Origin: Mycoplasmatota bacterium
GTDB lineage: Bacteria > Bacillota_I > Bacilli_A > MAG-NZ
DNA length: 64,000 nucleotides
NCBI GenBank assembly: GCA_018394315.1
Contig: CP074575.1
Coordinates: forward strand, 310,001-374,000
Direction of reading: 5' to 3'
Shown: piece after piece, positions 2,989-16,983 of the stretch
Layout: every line of letters starts with the position of its first letter
Numbering within the stretch: position 1 is the stretch's first letter
Program-made: the position numbers and the translations under genes
The notes under the pieces: generated by a model
Told to the model about the DNA's origin: nothing
Database searches by the model: none
What the model saw: the letters and a program-made list of their open reading frames with translations, nothing else

Positions 2989-3687
2989 ATGGAAAAATTA
3001 TTTGATTTCGAATCAGTTTATGTATGGATACCGTATTTGATAAAGGGACTATCTATTACACTAATTATTGCATTTACTAGTGCTTTATTTGGTATAGTCC
3101 TAGGAGTTATCTTAGTAATAATGACAAGGAGCAAGTTCTTGCGGTTTATCTCAAGCACATACATTGATATATTTAGAGGTACACCTGTTATTCTACAATT
3201 ATCAATAATTTATTTTGCGGTACCACAAATACTAGATAGATTATTTAACACAATGTTAGGTAATAATATAGATTTTGCGATGAATGCAGTTTTCGCAGCT
3301 ATTATTACTTTCAGTCTAAATTCAGCTGCATATGTTGCTGAGGTGATCCGTGCTGGGATCAATAGTATTGATAAAGGAGAGATTGAAGCAGCTAGAGCAC
3401 TAGGAGTTAGTAAATTTCACATATATAAAGACATCATATTTCCTTTAGCTTTTAAAAATTCATTACCAACATTGATGAATGAGTTAGTAACCTTAGTAAA
3501 AGAGTCATCAGTAGTCTCAATTATCGGTGTTCAAGATTTAATGAGAAGACAACAAATTGTAACATCACAAACATTCATGTACTTTGAACCACTTTTGTTT
3601 ATTGGAGTGATTTACTATATCGTTATTAAATTAATGACGATTACTAGTAGACAAATAGAAAAGAGGTTAGTTTATGATAACTATTAA
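2989..3687 (+). CDS. Polar amino acid (probably arginine) ABC transporter permease
   Basis: FRGTP and EAA loop (EIEAARALG); lies downstream of the Arg T-box. Confidence 0.92.
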   Translation: MEKLFDFESVYVWIPYLIKGLSITLIIAFTSALFGIVLGVILVIMTRSKFLRFISSTYIDIFRGTPVILQLSIIYFAVPQILDRLFNTMLGNNIDFAMNAVFAAIITFSLNSAAYVAEVIRAGINSIDKGEIEAARALGVSKFHIYKDIIFPLAFKNSLPTLMNELVTLVKESSVVSIIGVQDLMRRQQIVTSQTFMYFEPLLFIGVIYYIVIKLMTITSRQIEKRLVYDNY

Positions 3688-4393
3688 AAACATACATAAA
3701 TCATACGATAGTTTAAAAGTTTTAAAAGGAATTGATTACGAATTTAAACATAATAAAACTACCGCAATAATTGGTTCAAGTGGTAGTGGTAAGTCTACAT
3801 TACTAAGGTGTTTAAATTTGTTAGAAAATCCTAATGAAGGAGATATATTCTTCTTAAATGAAAATGTACAAGAGCTAAAAGATACAACTACTTTAAGAGA
3901 ACAAGTTGGAATGGTTTTTCAATCATTTAACTTATTCTCAAATATGAGTGTTCTAGAAAATGTTTCATATGCGTTAAGGGTGGTAAAAAAAATGAAAAAG
4001 ACAGAAGCCGATACTATCTCAAAAGCGTTGTTAGAAACCGTTGGATTAAGCGATAAAATAAGCGCTTATCCACATCACTTAAGTGGAGGGCAGAAACAAA
4101 GAGTAGCAATTGCTAGAGCATTAGCAATGAAACCACAGGTATTACTATTTGATGAACCTACTTCTGCTTTAGATCCTGAGATGGTTAACGAAGTCTTAGC
4201 GGTCATTAAAAAGCTTACTAAAACAGGAATTACAAGTATTGTAGTAACACACGAAATGAAATTCGCTAAAGAAGTAGCCGATGAAATAATCTATATGGAT
4301 AAAGGAGAATTAATCGAGAGCGGAAACGCATCTGAATTCTTTAATAATCCCAAGTCTAAAAGAGCCAAAGAATTCTTAAAAAATATAATATAA
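3674..4393 (+). CDS. Polar amino acid ABC transporter ATP-binding protein (GlnQ/ArtR-like)
   Basis: Walker A GSSGSGKS, LSGGQKQR signature, DEPTSALDPE. Confidence 0.95.
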   Translation: MITIKNIHKSYDSLKVLKGIDYEFKHNKTTAIIGSSGSGKSTLLRCLNLLENPNEGDIFFLNENVQELKDTTTLREQVGMVFQSFNLFSNMSVLENVSYALRVVKKMKKTEADTISKALLETVGLSDKISAYPHHLSGGQKQRVAIARALAMKPQVLLFDEPTSALDPEMVNEVLAVIKKLTKTGITSIVVTHEMKFAKEVADEIIYMDKGELIESGNASEFFNNPKSKRAKEFLKNII

Positions 4394-4404
4394 GGAGAAT
4401 TAAA

Positions 4405-5148
4405 ATGAAAAAAACAATTATAATATCGTTAATAATAACTTTATTAACTGGATGCAAAGCAAATACTGAAACAATTACTGTATTAACTAGTACAGGATAT
4501 GAACCATACGAGATGGTAGATACTAATGGAGAATTATCAGGTTTTGATATTGAGCTTTTTGAAGCGCTAGCTCAAGAAACTGGTTATGAAATCAAATGGA
4601 AGGACGTATCTTTTGACGGAATCATCGCCGCACTGCAAGCAAATCAAGCGGATGCTGCAATAGCCGGAATTACTCCAAGCAATTCAAGAAAAGAGAAAGT
4701 AGATTTTTCTAATACTTATTATAATTCAGAGGATGGGTTGATAAATTATCTTATTGTAATGAATGATAGCTCAATCACTGGAGTGAGTGATTTAGAAGCT
4801 AAAGTGCTTGGAGCACAATTAGGTACTATTCAAGCTGATCTAGTTGAAGAAATTAAGTCAATATATAACTTTGAGACTGATTTAAGAAATATTAATGCAC
4901 AAATTATTCAGGAGTTGAAGTCAGGTAGAATCGACGCACTTGTAGTAGAAAGTGCTGTTGCAGACTCTATTTTAGATTCGGAAAACACGTTTAAAAAAGT
5001 TCTACTGGAAGTTTCAAGCGAAAGTATCACCGGTAACGCAATTGCTTTTCCTAAAGATAGCAACCTAACTCAAGACTTCAATAATGCTTTAGAAACTCTA
5101 AAGTCAAATGGAAAATTAAAAGAGTTAGTTGATAAGTGGTTTAATTAA
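4405..5148 (+). CDS. Amino acid ABC transporter substrate-binding lipoprotein (SBP family 3)
   Basis: Lipobox LLTGC; YEPYE, GFDIEL, RKEKVDFS motifs. Confidence 0.92.
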   Translation: MKKTIIISLIITLLTGCKANTETITVLTSTGYEPYEMVDTNGELSGFDIELFEALAQETGYEIKWKDVSFDGIIAALQANQADAAIAGITPSNSRKEKVDFSNTYYNSEDGLINYLIVMNDSSITGVSDLEAKVLGAQLGTIQADLVEEIKSIYNFETDLRNINAQIIQELKSGRIDALVVESAVADSILDSENTFKKVLLEVSSESITGNAIAFPKDSNLTQDFNNALETLKSNGKLKELVDKWFN

Positions 5149-5207: not shown

Positions 5208-5361
5208 ATTTACCTTTTAGGCACTTTTTAAATAACTTAAGTGATAAAGGCACCTTCGGAAATTATATATTCTGAATACATATATATTGAATACTAAACT
5301 TGATGAACACTTAAGTAAAAATAAGATGTATTCCTCATATTCTACGAAAAGGAGGGAGGGT

Positions 5362-5829
5362 ATGGATAAAGAGTTAGATTCTATTATTGAAAAGGAAATA
5401 ATAAATCAGGAATTTGAAGAATGGTTTGGAGAGTTTCCATGTAGGCGTACAATATGGAGTTCTGATGAACCAATTGAAAATGCTACTTTAATATTTAATT
5501 ATCAAAATGGAACTGATGAACTCAGACTCTATATAAACGACAGTTCAAGACCTACAGAAATCCTTAACCCAGGAGAATCATATAAAAAAACAAAAATAAA
5601 CTTATATAGAATAGAAATCTGCTGTGGTAACGAGACCCCTGTAAGTAATAATAGATGTTTAAATATGTGTAAAAGACGAAGAATTAACGAATCACATTGT
5701 TCAGGTACTATAAGGATATGTACTTATCACAAAAAACCTTGTGCAAAACCAAAGTGTAATTATGCATTATGGTTAATTATATTTATATTAAATGTAATTA
5801 TAGCCCATTCTTGCTCTGACTGTTGTTAA
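5362..5829 (+). CDS. Cys-rich protein resembling the endospore appendage (Ena/DUF3992) core, with a hydrophobic C-terminal tail
   Basis: Strong RBS AGGAGGGAGG before the ATG at 5362. Pattern TIWSS..ATL..NG..LNPGES..T..L..IEICCG..CSG.I.IC recalls DUF3992 from memory; family call unverified. Confidence 0.5.
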   Translation: MDKELDSIIEKEIINQEFEEWFGEFPCRRTIWSSDEPIENATLIFNYQNGTDELRLYINDSSRPTEILNPGESYKKTKINLYRIEICCGNETPVSNNRCLNMCKRRRINESHCSGTIRICTYHKKPCAKPKCNYALWLIIFILNVIIAHSCSDCC

Positions 5830-5845
5830 TCTAATTCTAATAATC

Positions 5846-5874
5846 AATAACCCACAATCAATTTGTGGGTTATT
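5846..5874 (+). terminator. Intrinsic terminator-like hairpin
   Basis: AATAACCCACAA-loop-TTGTGGGTTATT. Confidence 0.7.
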
Positions 5875-5969
5875 ACTATTTTGAACTTTTTGAAAAATTT
5901 AACATTTATACAACTTATCACCTAGTCAAAAATCAAACTTAATAATACTATAAAGTAGGAGTTGATAAT

Positions 5970-7211
5970 ATGAGGGCTATCATATTCATAAACACAACAG
6001 AGTCGGGTACATCTAGAGAAGTATTAAAATCTGCGAAGAGATTAGGTTATAAAGTAATTCTTTTTACAGACAATTCAAAACAAGATAAAGAAAGACATCG
6101 ATTCACTGAAGTAGATGAACTAATATACTTAGAATATCTATCCTACGGCGATATAAAATCTTACATTGAAAGATATATTTTACACTTTTATGAGATCTCC
6201 GCTATCTTAAGCTTTTTAGATGGTTATGTAGGAATGGCATCTAGACTCGCAGACGATTTTACTGATAATATACTTAGTTCAAAAGCACTTGAAATAATGG
6301 AAAACAAACTTAAAACTAGAATGTTTTTTAAAGATGATAGTTTTACCCCGAAGTTCTCAAGTCTTAAAGATTTGTTAAATAAATCTCATTTGAATTTTCC
6401 TGTTGTCTATAAAGAATGTACTTCAACTGGTTCAAAGGGAGTAAAAAAAATAAATTCAAAATATGAACTTACAAACTTCGTGACGTCAGATGCCTTCATA
6501 GAAGAATATATACCAGGTCAGCAATATATGGTTGAGGTTTTAGTAAAAAATAGTAATCCAAAGATAATTGCCAAAATTAAGCAGATTATTTTGCAAACTA
6601 GTTATGATACATTCATTGTAAAAGGTTACTCTTTAGATAAAGATTTTAAGCTCCACACAAGTGAAAAAGAAATGATCAACAAAATTGTTTCTAAATTAAA
6701 GATTAAGAATGGACACATTCATATTGAATATAAGATGAATAAAGATGGGGTTAAACTCATTGAAATAAATCCTAGGATCTCAGGCGCAGGCATGCATGCG
6801 TTACTTGAAGAAGGACTTGGAATTAACTATACTGACCAAATGTTGAAGTTTTACCTAAAAGAAGATATACAAATTCCCAAACTTAAGAATAATTGTTACG
6901 CTCATTACTTTCTATCTAACAAAGGAGGGATACTTTCTAGAGTCACTGGAAGAGCAAAATCAATCATTCAAAAAGATATAAAGAGATTATTCATTAAACC
7001 TAAACAAGGTCAATTTATTAGATTACCAAAGTCAATGGCCAATCGATATGGTTACATCATTGGAACTGGTAGAACAATAGAGGAAGCAAGAACAAATACT
7101 CTCAAAGCTTCAAAAAATATCAAATTCCATCTAGTTCAAGAGTCATACTTAAACCTAATTCTCTTTATACTTCTCGTATTGGTACTTTCACTGCATTTGC
7201 ATAACTTATAA
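5970..7211 (+). CDS. ATP-grasp domain protein (L-amino acid ligase-like) with an extra hydrophobic C-terminal tail
   Basis: NKLKTR, STGSKGV, IEEYIPG, HIE and LIEINPRISG motifs. Confidence 0.88.
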   Translation: MRAIIFINTTESGTSREVLKSAKRLGYKVILFTDNSKQDKERHRFTEVDELIYLEYLSYGDIKSYIERYILHFYEISAILSFLDGYVGMASRLADDFTDNILSSKALEIMENKLKTRMFFKDDSFTPKFSSLKDLLNKSHLNFPVVYKECTSTGSKGVKKINSKYELTNFVTSDAFIEEYIPGQQYMVEVLVKNSNPKIIAKIKQIILQTSYDTFIVKGYSLDKDFKLHTSEKEMINKIVSKLKIKNGHIHIEYKMNKDGVKLIEINPRISGAGMHALLEEGLGINYTDQMLKFYLKEDIQIPKLKNNCYAHYFLSNKGGILSRVTGRAKSIIQKDIKRLFIKPKQGQFIRLPKSMANRYGYIIGTGRTIEEARTNTLKASKNIKFHLVQESYLNLILFILLVLVLSLHLHNL

Positions 7212-7285
7212 AAATTCATTATCAAAGAAGAGACTACTATTTACCATTCGTTTTTGAATGGTATTTTTTTAATTAAAAAAAGAAT

Positions 7286-8293
7286 TTAAAAATTCTTAAT
7301 TTTATATTCACTATATTTAATAATATTTCTGGCGTGATCAAGTTCACCTCTAAAAATTATTGGTACTCCCGGTCTCCAATTTATCTCATAAAGATAAATT
7401 TTATTATTCTTATCGAGTCCAATATCGATTCCTAGTTCATTAAGATCATCTCCATAATAATCATTAATGAATTCAGCCAACTGAATAGCGAACACTTTCA
7501 TGTATTTAAAAATGGCATTCCACTTCTCATCATACTCTCCCTTTAAATATGACTCGATATCAACTGTATATCCTCCTTGACTATAGTTTGTTACTTTGTT
7601 CTTGACGTTAGCTATTCTTGGATAGATAGTTGTAAGTATATATTTACCCTCTCCATTTTTTTGAGTATGAAGTCTAAAATCGACAGGTAGACCTTTTGAA
7701 GTCTCAGAGAAAATATATTGTTGTATTAAGTATGACTCTAAATCTATATTCTTTAAAGGCTCTTCTAAAGAGTTAACTACAAATTTACTACCATTCTCGT
7801 AGATTATATATGTTTTAGATTTTTTTTCAATAAACAAAATCCCGATCCCCTGGCATCCACTCATAGGCTTCAAAACGATTTTTTTATACTTATTCAGGAA
7901 TTCATCTACATTACTAATATTAGAGGCTAATTTAGTTTTCGGTAAGAAACCTCTAAAACAAGTGTCCTCCATTATTATTCTATGAATATCTTCTTTATCC
8001 CCTATTGGATTCTCTAAATACGATATTTCATCTCGTAATCTCAAGTAAATATCATTTTGTTTATCTGTATTTGGTTTAAACATATTAATTACAACCTTTG
8101 GAAACGGATAGGTCTTCTTAATCCACTCTCCATTTTCATAACTAAATCCCTCTATCGTCCTACTTATAAAGTCAACCTTTCCTGGTGAAAAATAGAAAAA
8201 TTCTACTCCCTCCATTTTAGCTGCAGCTGCAAAAGTATAGACCCTACTAATTTTGCTTGGATGAGCCCTCATATGCATAGCCCCTACTAACAT
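7286..8293 (-). CDS. YheC/YheD family ATP-grasp protein (spore coat-associated family)
   Basis: VLKPMSGCQGIGI, YLIQQYI, DFRLHTQK, TNYSQGG, ELGIDIGLD and YEINWRPG motifs. Confidence 0.88.
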   Translation of the reverse strand: MLVGAMHMRAHPSKISRVYTFAAAAKMEGVEFFYFSPGKVDFISRTIEGFSYENGEWIKKTYPFPKVVINMFKPNTDKQNDIYLRLRDEISYLENPIGDKEDIHRIIMEDTCFRGFLPKTKLASNISNVDEFLNKYKKIVLKPMSGCQGIGILFIEKKSKTYIIYENGSKFVVNSLEEPLKNIDLESYLIQQYIFSETSKGLPVDFRLHTQKNGEGKYILTTIYPRIANVKNKVTNYSQGGYTVDIESYLKGEYDEKWNAIFKYMKVFAIQLAEFINDYYGDDLNELGIDIGLDKNNKIYLYEINWRPGVPIIFRGELDHARNIIKYSEYKIKNF

Positions 8294-9480
8294 TATTCGT
8301 CCTCCCTTAAATGAAAAGTAATTTTTTTCGCAGCATCCAATGCAGCTTTTTTGGCATCTTCAACTGTCTCTCCAGTTGCGATAATGTAACCATTTCTATC
8401 TCCCATGTGCCTTGGCTTTCTAATATAATTCCCTTTTCTTCTCTTAATAAACACCACTTCAACACCAGGAGAGTTAAGAGCTTTAATCTTTCCAGTTACT
8501 CTGAGACTTTCTCCTTCTTTTTCTGATATTAAAAAGTGAGTGTACACATTTTCTTTTACTTTTGGCAACTCAAAATCTTCTTTTAAATAAAATTTAAGTA
8601 TCTGCTCTGCGTAATCAATTCCACTAGCTACTTTCATAATGTCATTCATTCCTGTACCCGTTGTTCTTGGATTTATTTCAATCAGTTTATAGATATCTCC
8701 ATTCTTTCTCATTTCAATATGTAATTCACCATTTTGAACTTCTAATTTCTTGGTAATATCTATAATGATTTTTTCTTCATTACTAGTTATATAGTCATCC
8801 TTATTTAGTGAGTATCCTAGTATAATGAATGAATTGTTTTTAGTATAAATATTATCCTGATGGAACTTAACGATATAAACAGGATTACCGTTTTCAACAA
8901 ACACCTCAAATAAGTACTGTTCTCCGTCTACATACTCTTCTACTAAAACATCATCAGAATTGTAAAATGATTCAGGGATGTCTTCTACTGTATCGACTTT
9001 TTTTACATCTCTAGAGGCTGATGAAGATGATTTCTTAATTATAAAAGGATAATTCAATAGAAAAGCGTCGCTCTTATTCATTTTTGCTTTTATGTAAATT
9101 GGCGAAAAATCATAGTCCTTAAATACTTCTCTAGTACGTAATTTGCTCTCCATAATCTCTAAAGCATTAGTGTTCCTAGGATTAAAAGTGAATTTATCTC
9201 TTAATCTAGAAGCCAAGGTAACATAACCATCTACAAAACTCAAAATAGATACTATTTCGAAATGTGGCTTTATATTTTGTTTTATATATTTTTTTAATTT
9301 ATCAAGAGATAAATCTTCCAAATAGAGCATTTGATGAACATCATGATACTCATCTAGCTGATTAATTTGTTTTTTGTTATCAGTTATTAAAATAGTATAA
9401 TAATTTAACCTGTCACAAGCCTTAATTACGTCCCTGCTTAATCCAGATTTATTCGTCTTAATGAAAACTACTGCCTTCAT
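8293..9480 (-). CDS. ATP-grasp domain protein, paralog of 5970-7211
   Basis: Same architecture (VEEYVDG, HIE, LIEINPR). Its TAA overlaps the YheC/D ATG (TAATG). Confidence 0.88.
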   Translation of the reverse strand: MKAVVFIKTNKSGLSRDVIKACDRLNYYTILITDNKKQINQLDEYHDVHQMLYLEDLSLDKLKKYIKQNIKPHFEIVSILSFVDGYVTLASRLRDKFTFNPRNTNALEIMESKLRTREVFKDYDFSPIYIKAKMNKSDAFLLNYPFIIKKSSSSASRDVKKVDTVEDIPESFYNSDDVLVEEYVDGEQYLFEVFVENGNPVYIVKFHQDNIYTKNNSFIILGYSLNKDDYITSNEEKIIIDITKKLEVQNGELHIEMRKNGDIYKLIEINPRTTGTGMNDIMKVASGIDYAEQILKFYLKEDFELPKVKENVYTHFLISEKEGESLRVTGKIKALNSPGVEVVFIKRRKGNYIRKPRHMGDRNGYIIATGETVEDAKKAALDAAKKITFHLREDE

Positions 9481-9535
9481 AATATCACCCTATCATATAC
9501 TATGATTTGTTAACAAACACAATTAGTGTAAATGT

Positions 9536-10894
9536 TTAGATATATATATTTTCATCAACTAGGTAATCAAATATTTCTTCAAAATTGTCCAGCATTGATA
9601 TTTTTACTAAAACCACAGTATCTTCATCAATCAATTCACTTAACAGTTCTTTTACACCTTCGACACTATCTAACATAATCACTCTATCTTCTTCTAGTCC
9701 ATTTTCAATTGCTCCATAACCAATGAGCTTAGATACCTCATCTAGAGTAATTAAATAATCCACATCAGTTAAGTATTGCCCCATTTCTCTATGTAACTCT
9801 TCTTCTAAATCATCTAGATACCCCATCTTAGATAAAATAATAATTTTCTTTTTGGGGAATTCCATCAATACATCAATAGCTGCTTTTAAAGATGTTGGGT
9901 TTGATGAAAATGAATCATCAATAATCAATGAACCATTTATACCACTTTTTAGTTCTAAGTGTTTACTAACATATTTATAGTCCTTTAGGATTGCAATTGA
10001 TTCAGTTATATCTATACCTAATAAACGACAAGCTATAATCGCAGCAGTCGCATTATACATATTGTGTTCTCCTAGACCTGGCAACTTAACAATATACTTT
10101 TTATCATCATGAATAAGGGTATAAGACATTCTTAACACATCAACATCAGTTATTCTGTACTCACTCTCATTTTTACCAAAGTATATTAATTTTCCTTCAA
10201 AGTCGCTTATATCTATCTTTGCAGTATTTTCACAATCTTTATTTAGAATCACAAAACCTGACTCATCAATTATTTCAAGCATTTCTGCTTTAGCCTTAAT
10301 ATAACCATCTAAATCCTTACAACCATTAAAATGATCATAACCTATGTTGGTTATGATTCCAATATTGGGATTAAAGTACATATTTGCCTCAAGTATGTCA
10401 TTTGGCTCAGCAACACCCATCTCATAAACCGCTACATCAATGTAATCATCTAAGGCTACTAAATATGGCAAATTAAAATACCCTGCATTTTTACTCGATA
10501 TTGTTCCTTCGACATTATAAAACTTAGATAATATAAACTTGATCATTTCTTTTGTAGTTGTTTTTCCACATGTTCCTGTAACCCCTACAACTGGAATATC
10601 AAATAATGATCTATAGTATTTAACAAATTTCTCTAATGCTTGGTCAACATCATCGACATAAATAACAGTAAAATCATCAAATTCCGACTCAAGCTTAACA
10701 TCAGAAACAATCACTACGTTGGTCCCATTAAAATCTGATGGATAAATCCTTGAATTAGATACATAAAAATAAGCAGAATTAACATCAAGAAACCTAACTC
10801 TATAACCGACATACTCTATGTCACCTAAAAAGTTATCCTGTGCAATTTCACCCCCAATAATTTCATTAAATTCGTCAAGCGAAAACTTCTTCAT
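9536..10894 (-). CDS. MurF-like Mur-family amino acid ligase
   Basis: P-loop GVTGTCGKTTTK, EMG, ITNIGYDH, GEHNMYNA, IIDDSFSSNPTS. Confidence 0.85.
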   Translation of the reverse strand: MKKFSLDEFNEIIGGEIAQDNFLGDIEYVGYRVRFLDVNSAYFYVSNSRIYPSDFNGTNVVIVSDVKLESEFDDFTVIYVDDVDQALEKFVKYYRSLFDIPVVGVTGTCGKTTTKEMIKFILSKFYNVEGTISSKNAGYFNLPYLVALDDYIDVAVYEMGVAEPNDILEANMYFNPNIGIITNIGYDHFNGCKDLDGYIKAKAEMLEIIDESGFVILNKDCENTAKIDISDFEGKLIYFGKNESEYRITDVDVLRMSYTLIHDDKKYIVKLPGLGEHNMYNATAAIIACRLLGIDITESIAILKDYKYVSKHLELKSGINGSLIIDDSFSSNPTSLKAAIDVLMEFPKKKIIILSKMGYLDDLEEELHREMGQYLTDVDYLITLDEVSKLIGYGAIENGLEEDRVIMLDSVEGVKELLSELIDEDTVVLVKISMLDNFEEIFDYLVDENIYI

Positions 10895-11046
10895 AAAATC
10901 ACCTCTACCTTAACCTATGAAAATATTTACTTTAACGACTGAGCAATTATCTTATAGTTTCTCTATAAAGTGGTTCGTTTTTTCATCAAATTATATTACA
11001 CTATAAAAAAAGCCTAGAGAGTAAGCTCTAGACTTTAGATTATAAA

Positions 11047-11122
<76 letters not shown>

Positions 11123-11130
11123 ATAAAAAA

Positions 11131-11206
11131 TGGTGGAGAATGACGGACTTGAACCGCCGACCCTCTGCTTGTAAGGCAGATGCTCTCCCAACTGAGCTAA
11201 TCCTCC
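11131..11206 (-). tRNA. tRNA-Val(UAC)
   Basis: 76-nt cloverleaf GGAGGAT...CTTACAA...TTCAAGT...CCA, with a TTTACA-17-TATAAT promoter just upstream. Confidence 0.97.
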
Positions 11207-14765: not shown

Positions 14766-15938
14766 CTAAATTATGTTCAATTCTTTCCCAACTCCAACAA
14801 ATACTTCAACTGCTTTATCTAATTGTTCTTTAGTGTGCTCAGCAGTAATCATACAACGTAATCTTCCTGTACCCATCGGAACAGTTGGAAATACTATTCC
14901 TGAAACAAAAACTCCACGTTCTAATAACTTTCTAGAAAACTCCATTGTTTTCGCTTCATCACCGATTATTACAGGAGTGATTGGAGTTTCACTATTCCCG
15001 ATATCAAATCCGGTCTCCTTCATTTTATCTTTAAAGTAGTTTCCATTATCCCATAATCTTTCAGATAACTCTTTGCTTTCACTCATTACTTTAATACTTT
15101 CATTGATCGCAGCTACTGTCCCTGGAGGAAGTGCAGTAGAGAATAGAATTGGGCGCCCTCTATGTGATAACCACTCTTTTGTAGCATAACTTCCTGCTAT
15201 GTATCCACCAATTACACCTACAGCCTTACTTAAAGTACCCATAATGAAATCTACTTGACCGTGCAAATTAAAATGATCAACCGTACCTCTACCATTTTCA
15301 CCTAAAACACCAGAACCATGTGCATCATCTACATAAGTTAAGCAATCATATTTTTTAGCTAAAGCAACTATTTCTGGAAGTTTACAAATGTCACCATCCA
15401 TACTAAATACACCATCGGTAATTATTAAAACTGTTTGATAATCATTTCTTTTTTCCTTAATTAATCTTTCTAGATCTTCCATATCACTATGTTTAAAAAC
15501 AGCTTTATCAGCTCTAGATAATCTAACACCATCAATGATTGAAGCATGGTTTAATTCGTCACTTAAAATTAAATCCCCCTTACCTGTAACAGCTTGAATA
15601 GTACCTGCATTACAGTTAAATCCAGATTGAAAAACCATTACTGCTTCTTCTTTTTTGAACTTAGCTAAAGTTTTTTCTAACTCTTCATGTAAATCCATAT
15701 TACCCACAATAGTTCTTACAGCTCCAGCACCAACCCCATACTTTTCTATCGCCTTAATACTAGCTTCCTTTAACCTAGGGTGACTTGCTAAACCCAAATA
15801 ATTATTACTCGTTAAGTTAATAACTTCTTTTCCATTTAAATTAATTACTGAACCACAAGCACCATAGTTAATTGGTAACTTTCTATAAACACCTTGATCT
15901 TTCAACTCTTGAACTTTCTTTTCTAATAACTTACTCAT
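14766..15938 (-). CDS. kbl: Glycine C-acetyltransferase (2-amino-3-ketobutyrate CoA ligase)
   Basis: [25 protein letters not shown] and TLSKA (PLP lysine); downstream of tdh. Confidence 0.92.
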
Positions 15939-16983
15939 TTATTCCACCTGGGAAAAGAACAATCTTTCCACATTTTCCTTCCTTCATAAGTTTAAATCCC
16001 TCTTCAAAATCTTCTAAAGCAAATTCATGCGTAACAATTTTATCTAAATCTAACACTCCTGATTCTACTAATCCAACTACTTTATACCAAGTATCATACA
16101 TTAATCTACCGACAACACCATATATTTCAATTCCCTTAAATACTACATCTTTAGCTAAATCTATTTCTATATTTTTACTAGGGATTCCTAGTAAAGACAT
16201 TTTTCCGCCTAGCTTAACGTATTTGAAAGCAGCCTCGATTGCATTTTTGTTTCCACTAAACTCTGCAACTACATCAACACCATTTTCAGTTTCTATAAAC
16301 ATTCTTTTTATTACATCTTCCTTTACAGGATTGATTATTACATCAGCTCCTAAATCTTTAGCCATTTGAATTCTATACTCATCCACTTCAACTGCGATCA
16401 CCTTTTTTGCACCTAGTGCTTTAGCTACATTAACTGCCATCAATCCGATTGGCCCACATCCCACAATCGCAACATTTTTTCCGACAATATCAAAATGCGT
16501 AAGTGTATGAACAGCATTTCCTAATGGTTCTAAGATTGAAATATATTTGGGATCAATTTTTGTTTTATTTACCATACAATTACTTGCGGGCATTTTAATG
16601 TACTCCGCGAATGCACCATCAACATCAACGCCAATAATTTCAGTATTTTGACAAATGTGACCATTACCAGTTCGACATTGCTCACATTCCCCACAAACTA
16701 TATGAGTTTCAACTGATACAATATCTCCAACATTTAAAGTTACAACGTTCTTTCCAAGCATAACTATTTCACCAGCTAGTTCGTGACCAACAGTAACAGG
16801 GGGTTTAATTCTGTTTTGACTCCACTCATCCCACTCATAAATGTGTTTATCAGTACCACAAATACTAGCAGCAATAACTTTAATTAAGACTTCATTGTCA
16901 GAGATTTCAGGTATAGGCTTTTTCGATAAGGTAAGCCCTTCTCCTTCGGTCTCCTTGATAATAACATTCATAAATTCTTTCAT
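15931..16983 (-). CDS. tdh: L-threonine 3-dehydrogenase
   Basis: [19 protein letters not shown] zinc site, [15 protein letters not shown]. Confidence 0.95.

Follow-up and report, generated by a model that had tools for sequence, protein, structure and literature searches.

A sporulation-linked amide-ligation module that joins L-amino-acid-ligase-type ATP-grasps with YheC/D and MurF-like enzymes

Introduction

The YheC/YheD family of ATP-grasp proteins is tied to the bacterial spore. The yheC and yheD genes of Bacillus subtilis belong to the sigma-E regulon (PMC517825), and YheD is a basement-layer coat protein (PMC7725329); no activity is reported for the family in the literature examined. 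Here we describe a locus that places a YheC/YheD-family (YheC/D) gene beside other amide ligases. It lies in a 64,000-nucleotide stretch of a Mycoplasmatota genome (assembly GCA_018394315.1, contig CP074575.1, positions 310,001 to 374,000), called the window below (G000 C1:310001-374000, where G000 is the host genome and C1 a contig of that genome). A five-gene span of the window encodes an Ena-like protein, two L-amino-acid-ligase (LAL)-type ATP-grasps (lalA and lalB), a YheC/D protein (yheCD) and a MurF-derived ligase (murF2). Papers are cited by PubMed Central (PMC) number.

MurF normally adds an ATP-grasp-made dipeptide to the carboxylate of a peptide (PMC10618370), and cyanophycin synthetase (CphA) is a fusion of an ATP-grasp and a Mur domain (PMC11915815). 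Nothing on fusions to ATP-grasp or YheC appears in the examined part of a survey of Mur chimeras (PMC10214165). Each enzyme family at the locus is already known, as is the spore role of YheC/D. No paper on the LAL-YheC/D-MurF combination or on the fusion described below was found in the literature searched, which did not cover subscription journals and supplements; Iyer et al. in 2009 reportedly may already describe YheC/D neighbourhoods.

The ligase module and its conservation

That the locus encodes a sporulation-linked amide-ligation system is well supported, because its ligases are co-conserved, sporulation regulators are present in the host and a separate murF exists. The first-pass annotation of this DNA had proposed such a system with the Ena-like protein as a member; co-conservation upholds the ligase part of that proposal, and the Ena part falls, as no Ena homologue occurs in any of the 80 LAL loci considered below. 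Its inventory of two paralogous ATP-grasps, a coupled YheC/D protein, a MurF-like ligase and a Cys-rich protein agrees with the five open reading frames listed at the same positions in the window and with their Pfam assignments.

LalA and LalB (44% identity) match ATP-grasp_3/4 and LAL_C2 in Pfam (LAL_C2 46.1 and 64.9 bits, cut-off 29.4). K113, K149, E256, E268, N270 and R272 are invariant across 43 aligned LALs and present in both window proteins; LalA retains both ATP lysines, H-x-E and E-x-N-x-R. By profile, the nearest solved relatives of the family are BL00235 (3VOT), 4DIM and RizA (4WD3), which are dipeptide ligases (PMC6920838). YheCD matches ATPgrasp_YheCD (PF14398) at 190.4 bits (cut-off 26.8), and K100, K142, D205, R207, D290, E303 and N305 are invariant in all ten aligned YheC/D proteins. 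None of the three ATP-grasps in the window has lost a catalytic residue.

All four ligases recur in a genome of the host's family (G004), in the same order and orientation and at 65-72% identity (C1:2331137-2336017), with a different gene ahead of lalA; the Ena orthologue (44%) lies far away at C1:173003. In G002, lalB-yheCD faces lalA, and murF2 was not found with the window's query. In a 55% complete genome of the same genus (G001), the corresponding tRNA-Val/Thr pair is followed only by yheCD and, facing it, a lalA that is interrupted by one internal stop. The host itself carries a second LAL-yheCD pair (C1:178048-180218), in which the LAL (C1:179058-180218) is degenerate, lacking both ATP lysines and E-x-N-x-R, and the YheC/D partner is intact; the G004 counterpart of this LAL retains most catalytic residues. 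Other host YheC/D genes score 75-88 bits against the LAL-linked subtype, versus 325 for the same-subtype copy. The host further encodes a 909 aa protein in which the YheC/D domain occurs twice (C1:1079085-1081814), and another YheC/D gene that follows a gene for a degenerate-looking partner of 252 aa, the latter bearing a CATA-n3-T box (C1:1872832-1874899).

Searching species genomes with an alignment of 43 LALs gave 464 relatives. Of these 464 loci the 80 best, mostly from Bacillus, Neobacillus, Sporosarcina, Lysinibacillus and Psychrobacillus, were inspected together with flanks of 8 kb; counts in these loci are floors because some contigs end within the flank. YheC/D genes occur in 73 of the 80 and MurF-like genes in 62, with both in 59 and neither in 4, which answers the first-pass call for co-conservation of the ligases together with the G004 cluster. 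A YheC/D-Mur fusion is present in 57, a CotZ-family gene in 51 and a secreted tandem NlpC/P60 protein in 56. A typical cluster contains a pair of stand-alone MurF-like genes together with the fusion, CotZ and one or two LALs. Within the host's class, genomes of families f4 and f17 have murF2-LAL-yheCD sets accompanied by an LPG_synthase_C-type gene and by a gene for a small protein rich in Tyr and Pro.

LAL plus YheC/D is the minimal unit of the module, and the Mur enzymes are an add-on. A bare divergent LAL and YheC/D pair occurs in B. cereus-group chromosomes and is the main cargo of a small mobilizable B. wiedmannii plasmid (L175, CP024692.1, 8368 bp), one of 3 plasmids inspected among 18 matches. 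A single Neobacillus/Bacillus chromosomal site (L064, L069, L070, L085, L096, L103, L115) ranges from the full module to LAL alone to LAL with four YheC/D genes.

Three accompanying proteins deserve description. The tandem NlpC/P60 protein (L071:1421-2821 and 55 other loci) has two or three domains, with the catalytic Cys motif in the first domain only in the rows read, and its solved matches are general NlpC/P60 peptidases; a role as a PgdS-like poly-glutamate hydrolase is conceivable. A Cys-terminal protein without a named family, found in 22 of the 80 loci (Bacillales; L061:5819-6265 and 21 others), is a beta-rich chain of about 146 aa with Cys at both ends, no Pfam family and unnamed Atlas clusters, and is a candidate coat subunit or acceptor. 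In B. cereus-group loci (L084:5976-6560 and six others), an Ala/Gly/Ser-rich, internally duplicated protein of about 190 aa without a Pfam family stands beside LAL and YheC/D.

MurF-derived ligases and the YheC/D-Mur fusion

MurF2 matches Mur_ligase_M and Mur_ligase_C but not the N-terminal Mur domain of Pfam, and scores 223.9 bits on TIGR01143, below the cut-off of 288.6. On the same model a separate canonical MurF reaches 408-464 bits in all five genomes tested, and cluster copies reach 219-266. In the host, which has seven Mur-domain genes, a separate murF lies beside ddl (G000:C1:966689-969228; ddl recognised from sequence), which answers the first-pass call to check for a separate canonical murF. 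That murF2 is the sole murF is ruled out by this ddl-linked gene and by the tree described below.

The Mur core is retained in MurF2 (P-loop, Glu, His, carbamoylated Lys, Asn, Asp). The domain-1 motifs D-S/T-R and N-G-H are missing, and the C-terminal Arg, Y-N, E-L-G and K-G-S-R motifs are altered; domain-1 and C-terminal motifs are present, with single substitutions, in six aligned canonical MurF proteins, and the ddl-linked MurF of the host retains the Arg, Y-N and E-L-G motifs that MurF2 has altered. Each Mur paralogue type alters the C-terminal motifs differently, as judged from a subset of aligned rows rather than a tally over all Mur copies, a scope that applies to all of these motif statements. 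We take the changed motifs to be those that bind uridine diphosphate (UDP) and the dipeptide in MurF, and the roles of the core residues are likewise assumed. The ddl-linked MurF (C1:966689-968188) has a hydrophobic N-terminal region instead of the usual domain 1, a type also found in family f4, and G004 holds an extra pair of a ddl-like gene and a canonical Bacillus-type murF (L138:5237-7676; 424 bits).

A FastTree phylogeny of 83 Mur sequences, built on 351 columns of the middle and C-terminal domains with 21 of the 80 loci represented, gathers the cluster-linked Mur proteins in a single clade (support 0.83) that lies beside canonical MurF and separate from it. Fusion and stand-alone types fall into separate well-supported groups, and MurF2 groups with its G004 orthologues.

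ATP-grasp and Mur domains are encoded by separate genes in the window and share one chain in the fused relatives. In 12 fusions inspected, the Mur match begins at or near the P-loop domain (MurF2 residue 84-101). The fusion comes without the UDP-binding domain, and its domain order is that of cyanophycin synthetase. A fusion model (mean predicted local distance difference test, pLDDT, 86; predicted template modelling score, pTM, 0.56) shows no domain ahead of the ATP-grasp, so the N domain of CphA is absent. The C-half fits MurF (3ZL8: Z 38.9, root-mean-square deviation (rmsd) 2.2, 341 aligned), and the best solved matches of the Mur half are MurF structures (4QDI, 4CVK, 3ZL8). The YheC/D half folds like RimK, GshB and LysX/ArgX (Z 18.5-19.0, rmsd 3.2-3.9, 257-282 aligned) and has weak sequence matches to tubulin ligases; proteins or peptides are the substrates that RimK- and LysX-type enzymes extend. 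Among the Foldseek matches listed, only cyanophycin synthetases align across both halves (738-753 columns). On the cyanophycin synthetase model TIGR02068 (cut-off 850), MurF2 scores 62.6 bits and the fusion 71.7. The fusion is most readily interpreted as having reached the CphA layout independently, because the C-half is MurF-like, the N-half resembles RimK, GshB and LysX, and the match to CphA has an rmsd of about 20 A.

Distribution among spore formers and promoter boxes

In the genomes searched, the module is confined to spore formers. The host genome (2.17 Mb, 31% GC) carries spo0A and spoIVA; the best models for its sigma factors are SigE, SigG and SigK plus a short SigF-type, only some of which exceed their cut-offs, and the short SigF-type gene adjoins genes read as spoIIAA/AB. 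Sporulation regulators, which the first-pass annotation had named as a check on its proposal, are thus present. Across the host's class, 72 of 201 genomes are spo0A-positive and 200 were scored with the LAL profile. This profile reaches E <= 1e-40 in 16 of the 200. Fifteen matches are better than 1e-130, all in spo0A-positive genomes, and the weak sixteenth (G145, 4e-42) is in a spo0A-negative genome; a family-level LAL occurs in none of the 128 scored spo0A-negative genomes. A second survey covered the family of the genome that carries locus L076 (121 genomes), where LAL is found in 43, all spoIVA-positive, and in 0 of 31 spoIVA-negative genomes.

The box CATA-n3-T, which we take to be the -10 element of sigma-E/K (mother-cell) promoters, stands 10-40 nt before the start of three of the four lead genes at the locus, versus 65 of 1004 in the host genome; lalA has a box with one mismatch. 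In the 80 loci, 85 of 161 Mur genes have the box upstream, as do 40 of 84 LAL genes, versus 60 of 586 other genes. NlpC/P60 genes show no enrichment (5/55).

The Ena-like protein and YjcZ-like tails

The first-pass description of the small Cys-rich protein as Ena-like agrees with profile and model evidence. The protein scores 21.8 bits on Enas (PF13157/DUF3992; cut-off 22) and its G004 orthologue, P0050, 42.9 bits; the Ena-family profile matches 9T3P, 8PDZ and 9I0Y. A predicted structure (pLDDT 86), for which the top five Foldseek matches are all Ena (template modelling (TM) score by target 0.48-0.68), confirms at the level of a model that the fold is a true Ena jelly-roll. Profile search retrieves 32 Ena homologues, and word search its own cluster alone. 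The first Cys of the window protein is residue 27, leaving no N-terminal Cys connector, and the protein belongs to a small tailed subfamily that lacks the run of Cys found at the N terminus of tail-less homologues. In Ena1A/B that connector cross-links fibres, and by analogy with Ena1C the window protein may anchor rather than form a stalk (PMC12921279). The host also has a two-gene Ena operon (C1:1234163-1234994; L035) that encodes a tail-less subunit with an N-terminal Cys and a YjcZ-tailed subunit.

Both the Ena-like protein and LalA end in a YjcZ-like hydrophobic tail. Neither window tail matches PF09680 or TIGR01732; the tail of P0050 exceeds both cut-offs (40.5 and 30.8 bits). A home-made matrix, built from two stand-alone YjcZ-like peptides of the host, one of them without a TIGR01732 match, ranks the Ena-like protein first, its paralogue second and LalA tied third to fourth among 1949 C-termini; run over whole proteins, it places LalA eighth. 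The LalA tail is retained in the G004 and G001 orthologues and weaker in G002. Such a tail occurs in 3 of 111 LALs (80 loci plus the window), all from this family, and Bacillales LALs lack it. The host encodes four small YjcZ-like peptides (C1:744621, 848334, 1771666, 2152061; L145-L148), of which two have long Gly/Tyr/Cys repeats and three pass TIGR01732. B. subtilis SscA is presumably a YjcZ-family peptide. Enzymes fused to SscA are delivered to the inner coat (PMC13417171), and by analogy the tail may bring both the Ena-like protein and LalA to the spore envelope without implying that the two work as a single system.

An Ena gene stands beside the ligases in none of the three relatives (G001, G002, G004), and the Enas family was not found in G002, G034 or G039, all of which bear ligases. 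The Ena-like gene is a local neighbour and not a conserved part of the module; synteny rules out Ena as a conserved member, and the sole remaining tie of the gene to the ligases is the YjcZ-like tail common to LalA. The Cys-terminal protein of the 22 Bacillales loci was considered as an Ena equivalent, which is unsupported (hhalign 0.2%).

Locus organization

The five genes form three predicted transcription units (the ena-like gene; lalA; murF2-lalB-yheCD) because they are convergent and split by terminator-like hairpins (Table 1); the same orientations and hairpins rule out a one-operon reading. The hairpin scan gives 6 sites versus 1.7 +/- 1.3 in shuffles, and a sigma-70 promoter scan shows no excess (31 found versus 36 +/- 6 in shuffles). 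The lalB stop overlaps the yheCD ATG at 8293, indicating translational coupling. The five-gene span contains no exporter, racemase or precursor enzyme, as the first-pass annotation had noted; an amino-acid ABC importer lies just upstream (2989-5148; Pfam).

On the other side are tRNA-Thr/Val genes at 11047-11206, and a ligase remnant occurs at the same tRNA site in G001. The locus was considered as a tRNA-targeted island, and no integrase or GC shift is seen, no att search having been made. Further along the window (14766-16983) are genes that resemble a threonine dehydrogenase and a pyridoxal-phosphate-dependent coenzyme A ligase (tdh-kbl type) by sequence alone. The host has 33 tRNAs in all, and ARAGORN calls a tRNA-SeC at G000:C1:712683-712779.

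Table 1. Features of the ligase locus, in window coordinates
Feature	Position	Strand	Basis and remarks
CATA-n3-T box upstream of ena-like gene	5336-5343	+	sequence; no convincing -35
ena-like gene	5362-5829	+	155 aa, 12 Cys; frame open from TTG 5287, ribosome-binding site before ATG 5362
YjcZ-like hydrophobic tail of Ena-like protein (helix 134-152)	5761-5817	+	home-made matrix rank; orthologue profile match
Terminator-like hairpin, ena-like gene/lalA boundary	5846-5874		12 pairs
lalA	5970-7211	+	413 aa; LAL-type ATP-grasp
YjcZ-like hydrophobic C-terminal tail of lalA	7143-7208	+	conservation and matrix rank
Terminator-like hairpin, between convergent lalA and yheCD	7242-7263		9 pairs
yheCD	7286-8293	-	335 aa; YheC/YheD-family ATP-grasp, LAL-linked subtype, coupled to lalB
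lalB	8293-9480	-	395 aa; second LAL-type ATP-grasp, catalytic set intact, without tail
CATA-n3-T box upstream of lalB	9497-9504	-	same box, same place in G004
murF2	9536-10894	-	452 aa; MurF-derived ligase
CATA-n3-T box upstream of murF2	10912-10919	-	matching box in G004
Terminator-like hairpin closing tRNA-Val/Thr transcript, upstream of murF2	11009-11036	-	tRNA calls and hairpin scan

Proposed function and alternative explanations

We tentatively favour, with somewhat less than even confidence, a pathway in which the LALs make dipeptides, MurF2 transfers them to an acceptor other than peptidoglycan and YheC/D builds or extends that acceptor. LalA and LalB would join L-amino acids into L,L-dipeptides, and MurF2 would add the dipeptide to a carboxylate of the acceptor, which YheC/D would build or extend on a coat protein or peptide. 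From the promoter boxes and the confinement to spore formers we infer that the module is likely expressed in the mother cell, and its product would end in the coat. The logic would copy that of Ddl and MurF, in which the dipeptide comes from an ATP-grasp and is transferred by MurF, but the substrates would be new. The fusions of many Bacillales have YheC/D where MurF has its UDP-MurNAc-binding domain, which gives the ATP-grasp and Mur order of CphA, and in this lineage the YjcZ-like tail may hold LalA at the spore envelope.

Several observations weigh against this pathway. The Mur step is not obligatory, as 18 of the 80 loci have no Mur-like gene; LAL and YheC/D also occur without Mur in G002, in the host's second copy and on plasmids such as pBM600 and pBM300 of Priestia megaterium QM B1551, where the pairs are BMQ_RS26870-75 and BMQ_RS25700-695, respectively. 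The pBM600 plasmid is needed for exosporium formation, and the available part of that source does not mention the LAL and YheC/D genes (PMC4674009). G004 has a second, solitary murF2 with no ligase nearby (L137:6848-8194). Stand-alone MurF2 proteins have His or Gln for the conserved Arg of the Mur R-L/M-E motif, a replacement that may lower or remove activity, and the presumed housekeeping MurF of the host is itself below the TIGR01143 cut-off (241.6 bits). The likeness to CphA is one of domain order only, because the match has so large an rmsd and the Mur half is nearer MurF than CphA. The LAL family is accessory to sporulation, because just 15 of 72 spo0A-positive and 43 of 90 spoIVA-positive genomes carry it, and kin in the co-occurrence counts are not independent. 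As for expression, CotZ (7/51) and stand-alone YheC/D genes (9/51) show little box enrichment, and the -10 box is short and AT-rich, with an assumed consensus and no clear -35 in the window.

Other explanations fit parts of the same evidence. The module might instead edit spore peptidoglycan, LAL and MurF2 replacing Ddl and MurF to give new stem-peptide ends for the cortex or germ-cell wall, with later trimming by NlpC/P60. The MurF-derived Mur half, the secreted NlpC/P60 protein in 56 of 80 loci and the LPG_synthase_C-type transferase that accompanies the genes in family f4 all suit such a role, which we nevertheless regard as unlikely: the canonical domain-1 motifs are missing from MurF2 and the domain itself from the fusions, CotZ-family genes are neighbours in 51 of 80 loci, and the NlpC gene generally has no promoter box (5/55) and does not occur in the window or in the f1 and f4 loci inspected. 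It is similarly improbable that the product is free rather than attached to protein, either a branched polymer like cyanophycin, for storage or as a matrix, or else a small bioactive peptide of the kind made by BacD and RizA. The CphA-like domain order, the antibiotic dipeptides made by LAL relatives and the mobile pair on the 8.4 kb plasmid would accord with a free product, and cyanophycin has been proposed, at second hand, as a spore matrix in Clostridium perfringens (PMC5532821). Yet no exporter, precursor enzyme or cyanophycinase is conserved among the clusters present in at least 14 of the 80 loci, the YheC/D half is nearest to protein- or peptide-modifying enzymes, and the CphA model is far from its cut-off (71.7 of 850 bits).

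The narrower idea of the first-pass annotation, that Ena appendages are the target decorated by the ligases, with the Ena-like gene a member of the system, is largely refuted by synteny and now very improbable. The ena-like gene does adjoin lalA in the same orientation, with the same promoter box and a YjcZ-like tail in both products; however, Ena is missing from all 80 loci, is not adjacent in the three relatives and was not found in three ligase-bearing genomes, a terminator separates the two genes, and the Cys-terminal Bacillales protein is not Ena-like (hhalign 0.2%). Scarcely more credible is the suggestion that these proteins serve mainly as structural parts of the coat that bind ATP, or act independently as enzymes whose genes cluster only because they belong to sporulation. 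Gene order is fluid, the host's second LAL has lost both lysines and E-x-N-x-R, and Galperin et al. call coat enzymes 'not necessarily active'. Against this stand the catalytic residues invariant in 43 LALs and 10 YheC/D proteins, while a single pathway is indicated by the translational coupling, by the repeated occurrence of the fusion and by plasmids that carry the genes together.

Taken further, the favoured dipeptide-transfer pathway would make the module a third kind of ATP-grasp/Mur polymer synthetase, after CphA and the pseudomurein ligases. MurF would have been recruited from wall synthesis, fused independently to YheC/D and paired with L,L-dipeptide ligases; together they would assemble a branched non-ribosomal peptide, either on the coat or within it, in many Bacillales and in spore-forming mycoplasma relatives. 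The YjcZ-like peptide would be a natural spore-anchoring tag of one ligase and an Ena-fold protein in this lineage. This broader picture is possible but doubtful. Should the reading hold, the spores of many soil and gut bacteria would bear a non-ribosomal peptide on the coat or within it, MurF would have taken on a role other than building the cell wall, and the 464 genomic loci would be a source of uncharacterised dipeptide ligases that might serve in biocatalysis. The module gives YheC/YheD named partners (dipeptide ligases, MurF paralogues and a CphA-like fusion) and therefore a short list of assays that could give YheC/YheD a first substrate. It also carries a warning for annotation, since genes annotated murF in such genomes are often not cell-wall genes.

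Comparison with known systems

The window's YheC/D protein resembles B. subtilis YheC and YheD in its PF14398 match above cut-off, its sporulation context and its putative promoter type, and differs as a distinct subtype of about 340 aa tied to LAL and MurF-like genes. The LALs share the ATP-grasp plus LAL_C2 architecture and catalytic motifs of BL00235 (3VOT), RizA (4WD3) and BacD (3VMM), but the similarity is distant (profile E 8e-26 at best), no antibiotic cluster is present here and LalA has a hydrophobic tail. The Ena-like protein has the jelly-roll fold and conserved Cys of the S-/L-ENA subunits Ena1A/B/C, Ena2A and Ena3A (7A02, 9T3P, 9I0Y, 8PDZ), with a C-terminal YjcZ-like helix instead of the N-terminal Cys connector.

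As in the Ddl and MurF pair, an ATP-grasp stands beside a MurF-fold ligase that retains the Mur catalytic core. Unlike that pair, the ATP-grasps here are of LAL_C2 type, the UDP-side and dipeptide-side motifs are altered, a housekeeping ddl-murF is present separately and the module is restricted to spore formers in the genomes searched. CphA1 (7LG5, 7LGJ, 7WAE), the maker of a beta-Asp-Arg polymer, offers the other close parallel, an ATP-grasp followed by a Mur domain without a nucleotide-sugar domain, as in the 57 fused forms. The fusions differ from CphA1 in lacking its N domain and in their MurF-derived Mur half and YheC/D ATP-grasp, at 17-18% identity, and in the window the genes are split and accompanied by extra LALs.

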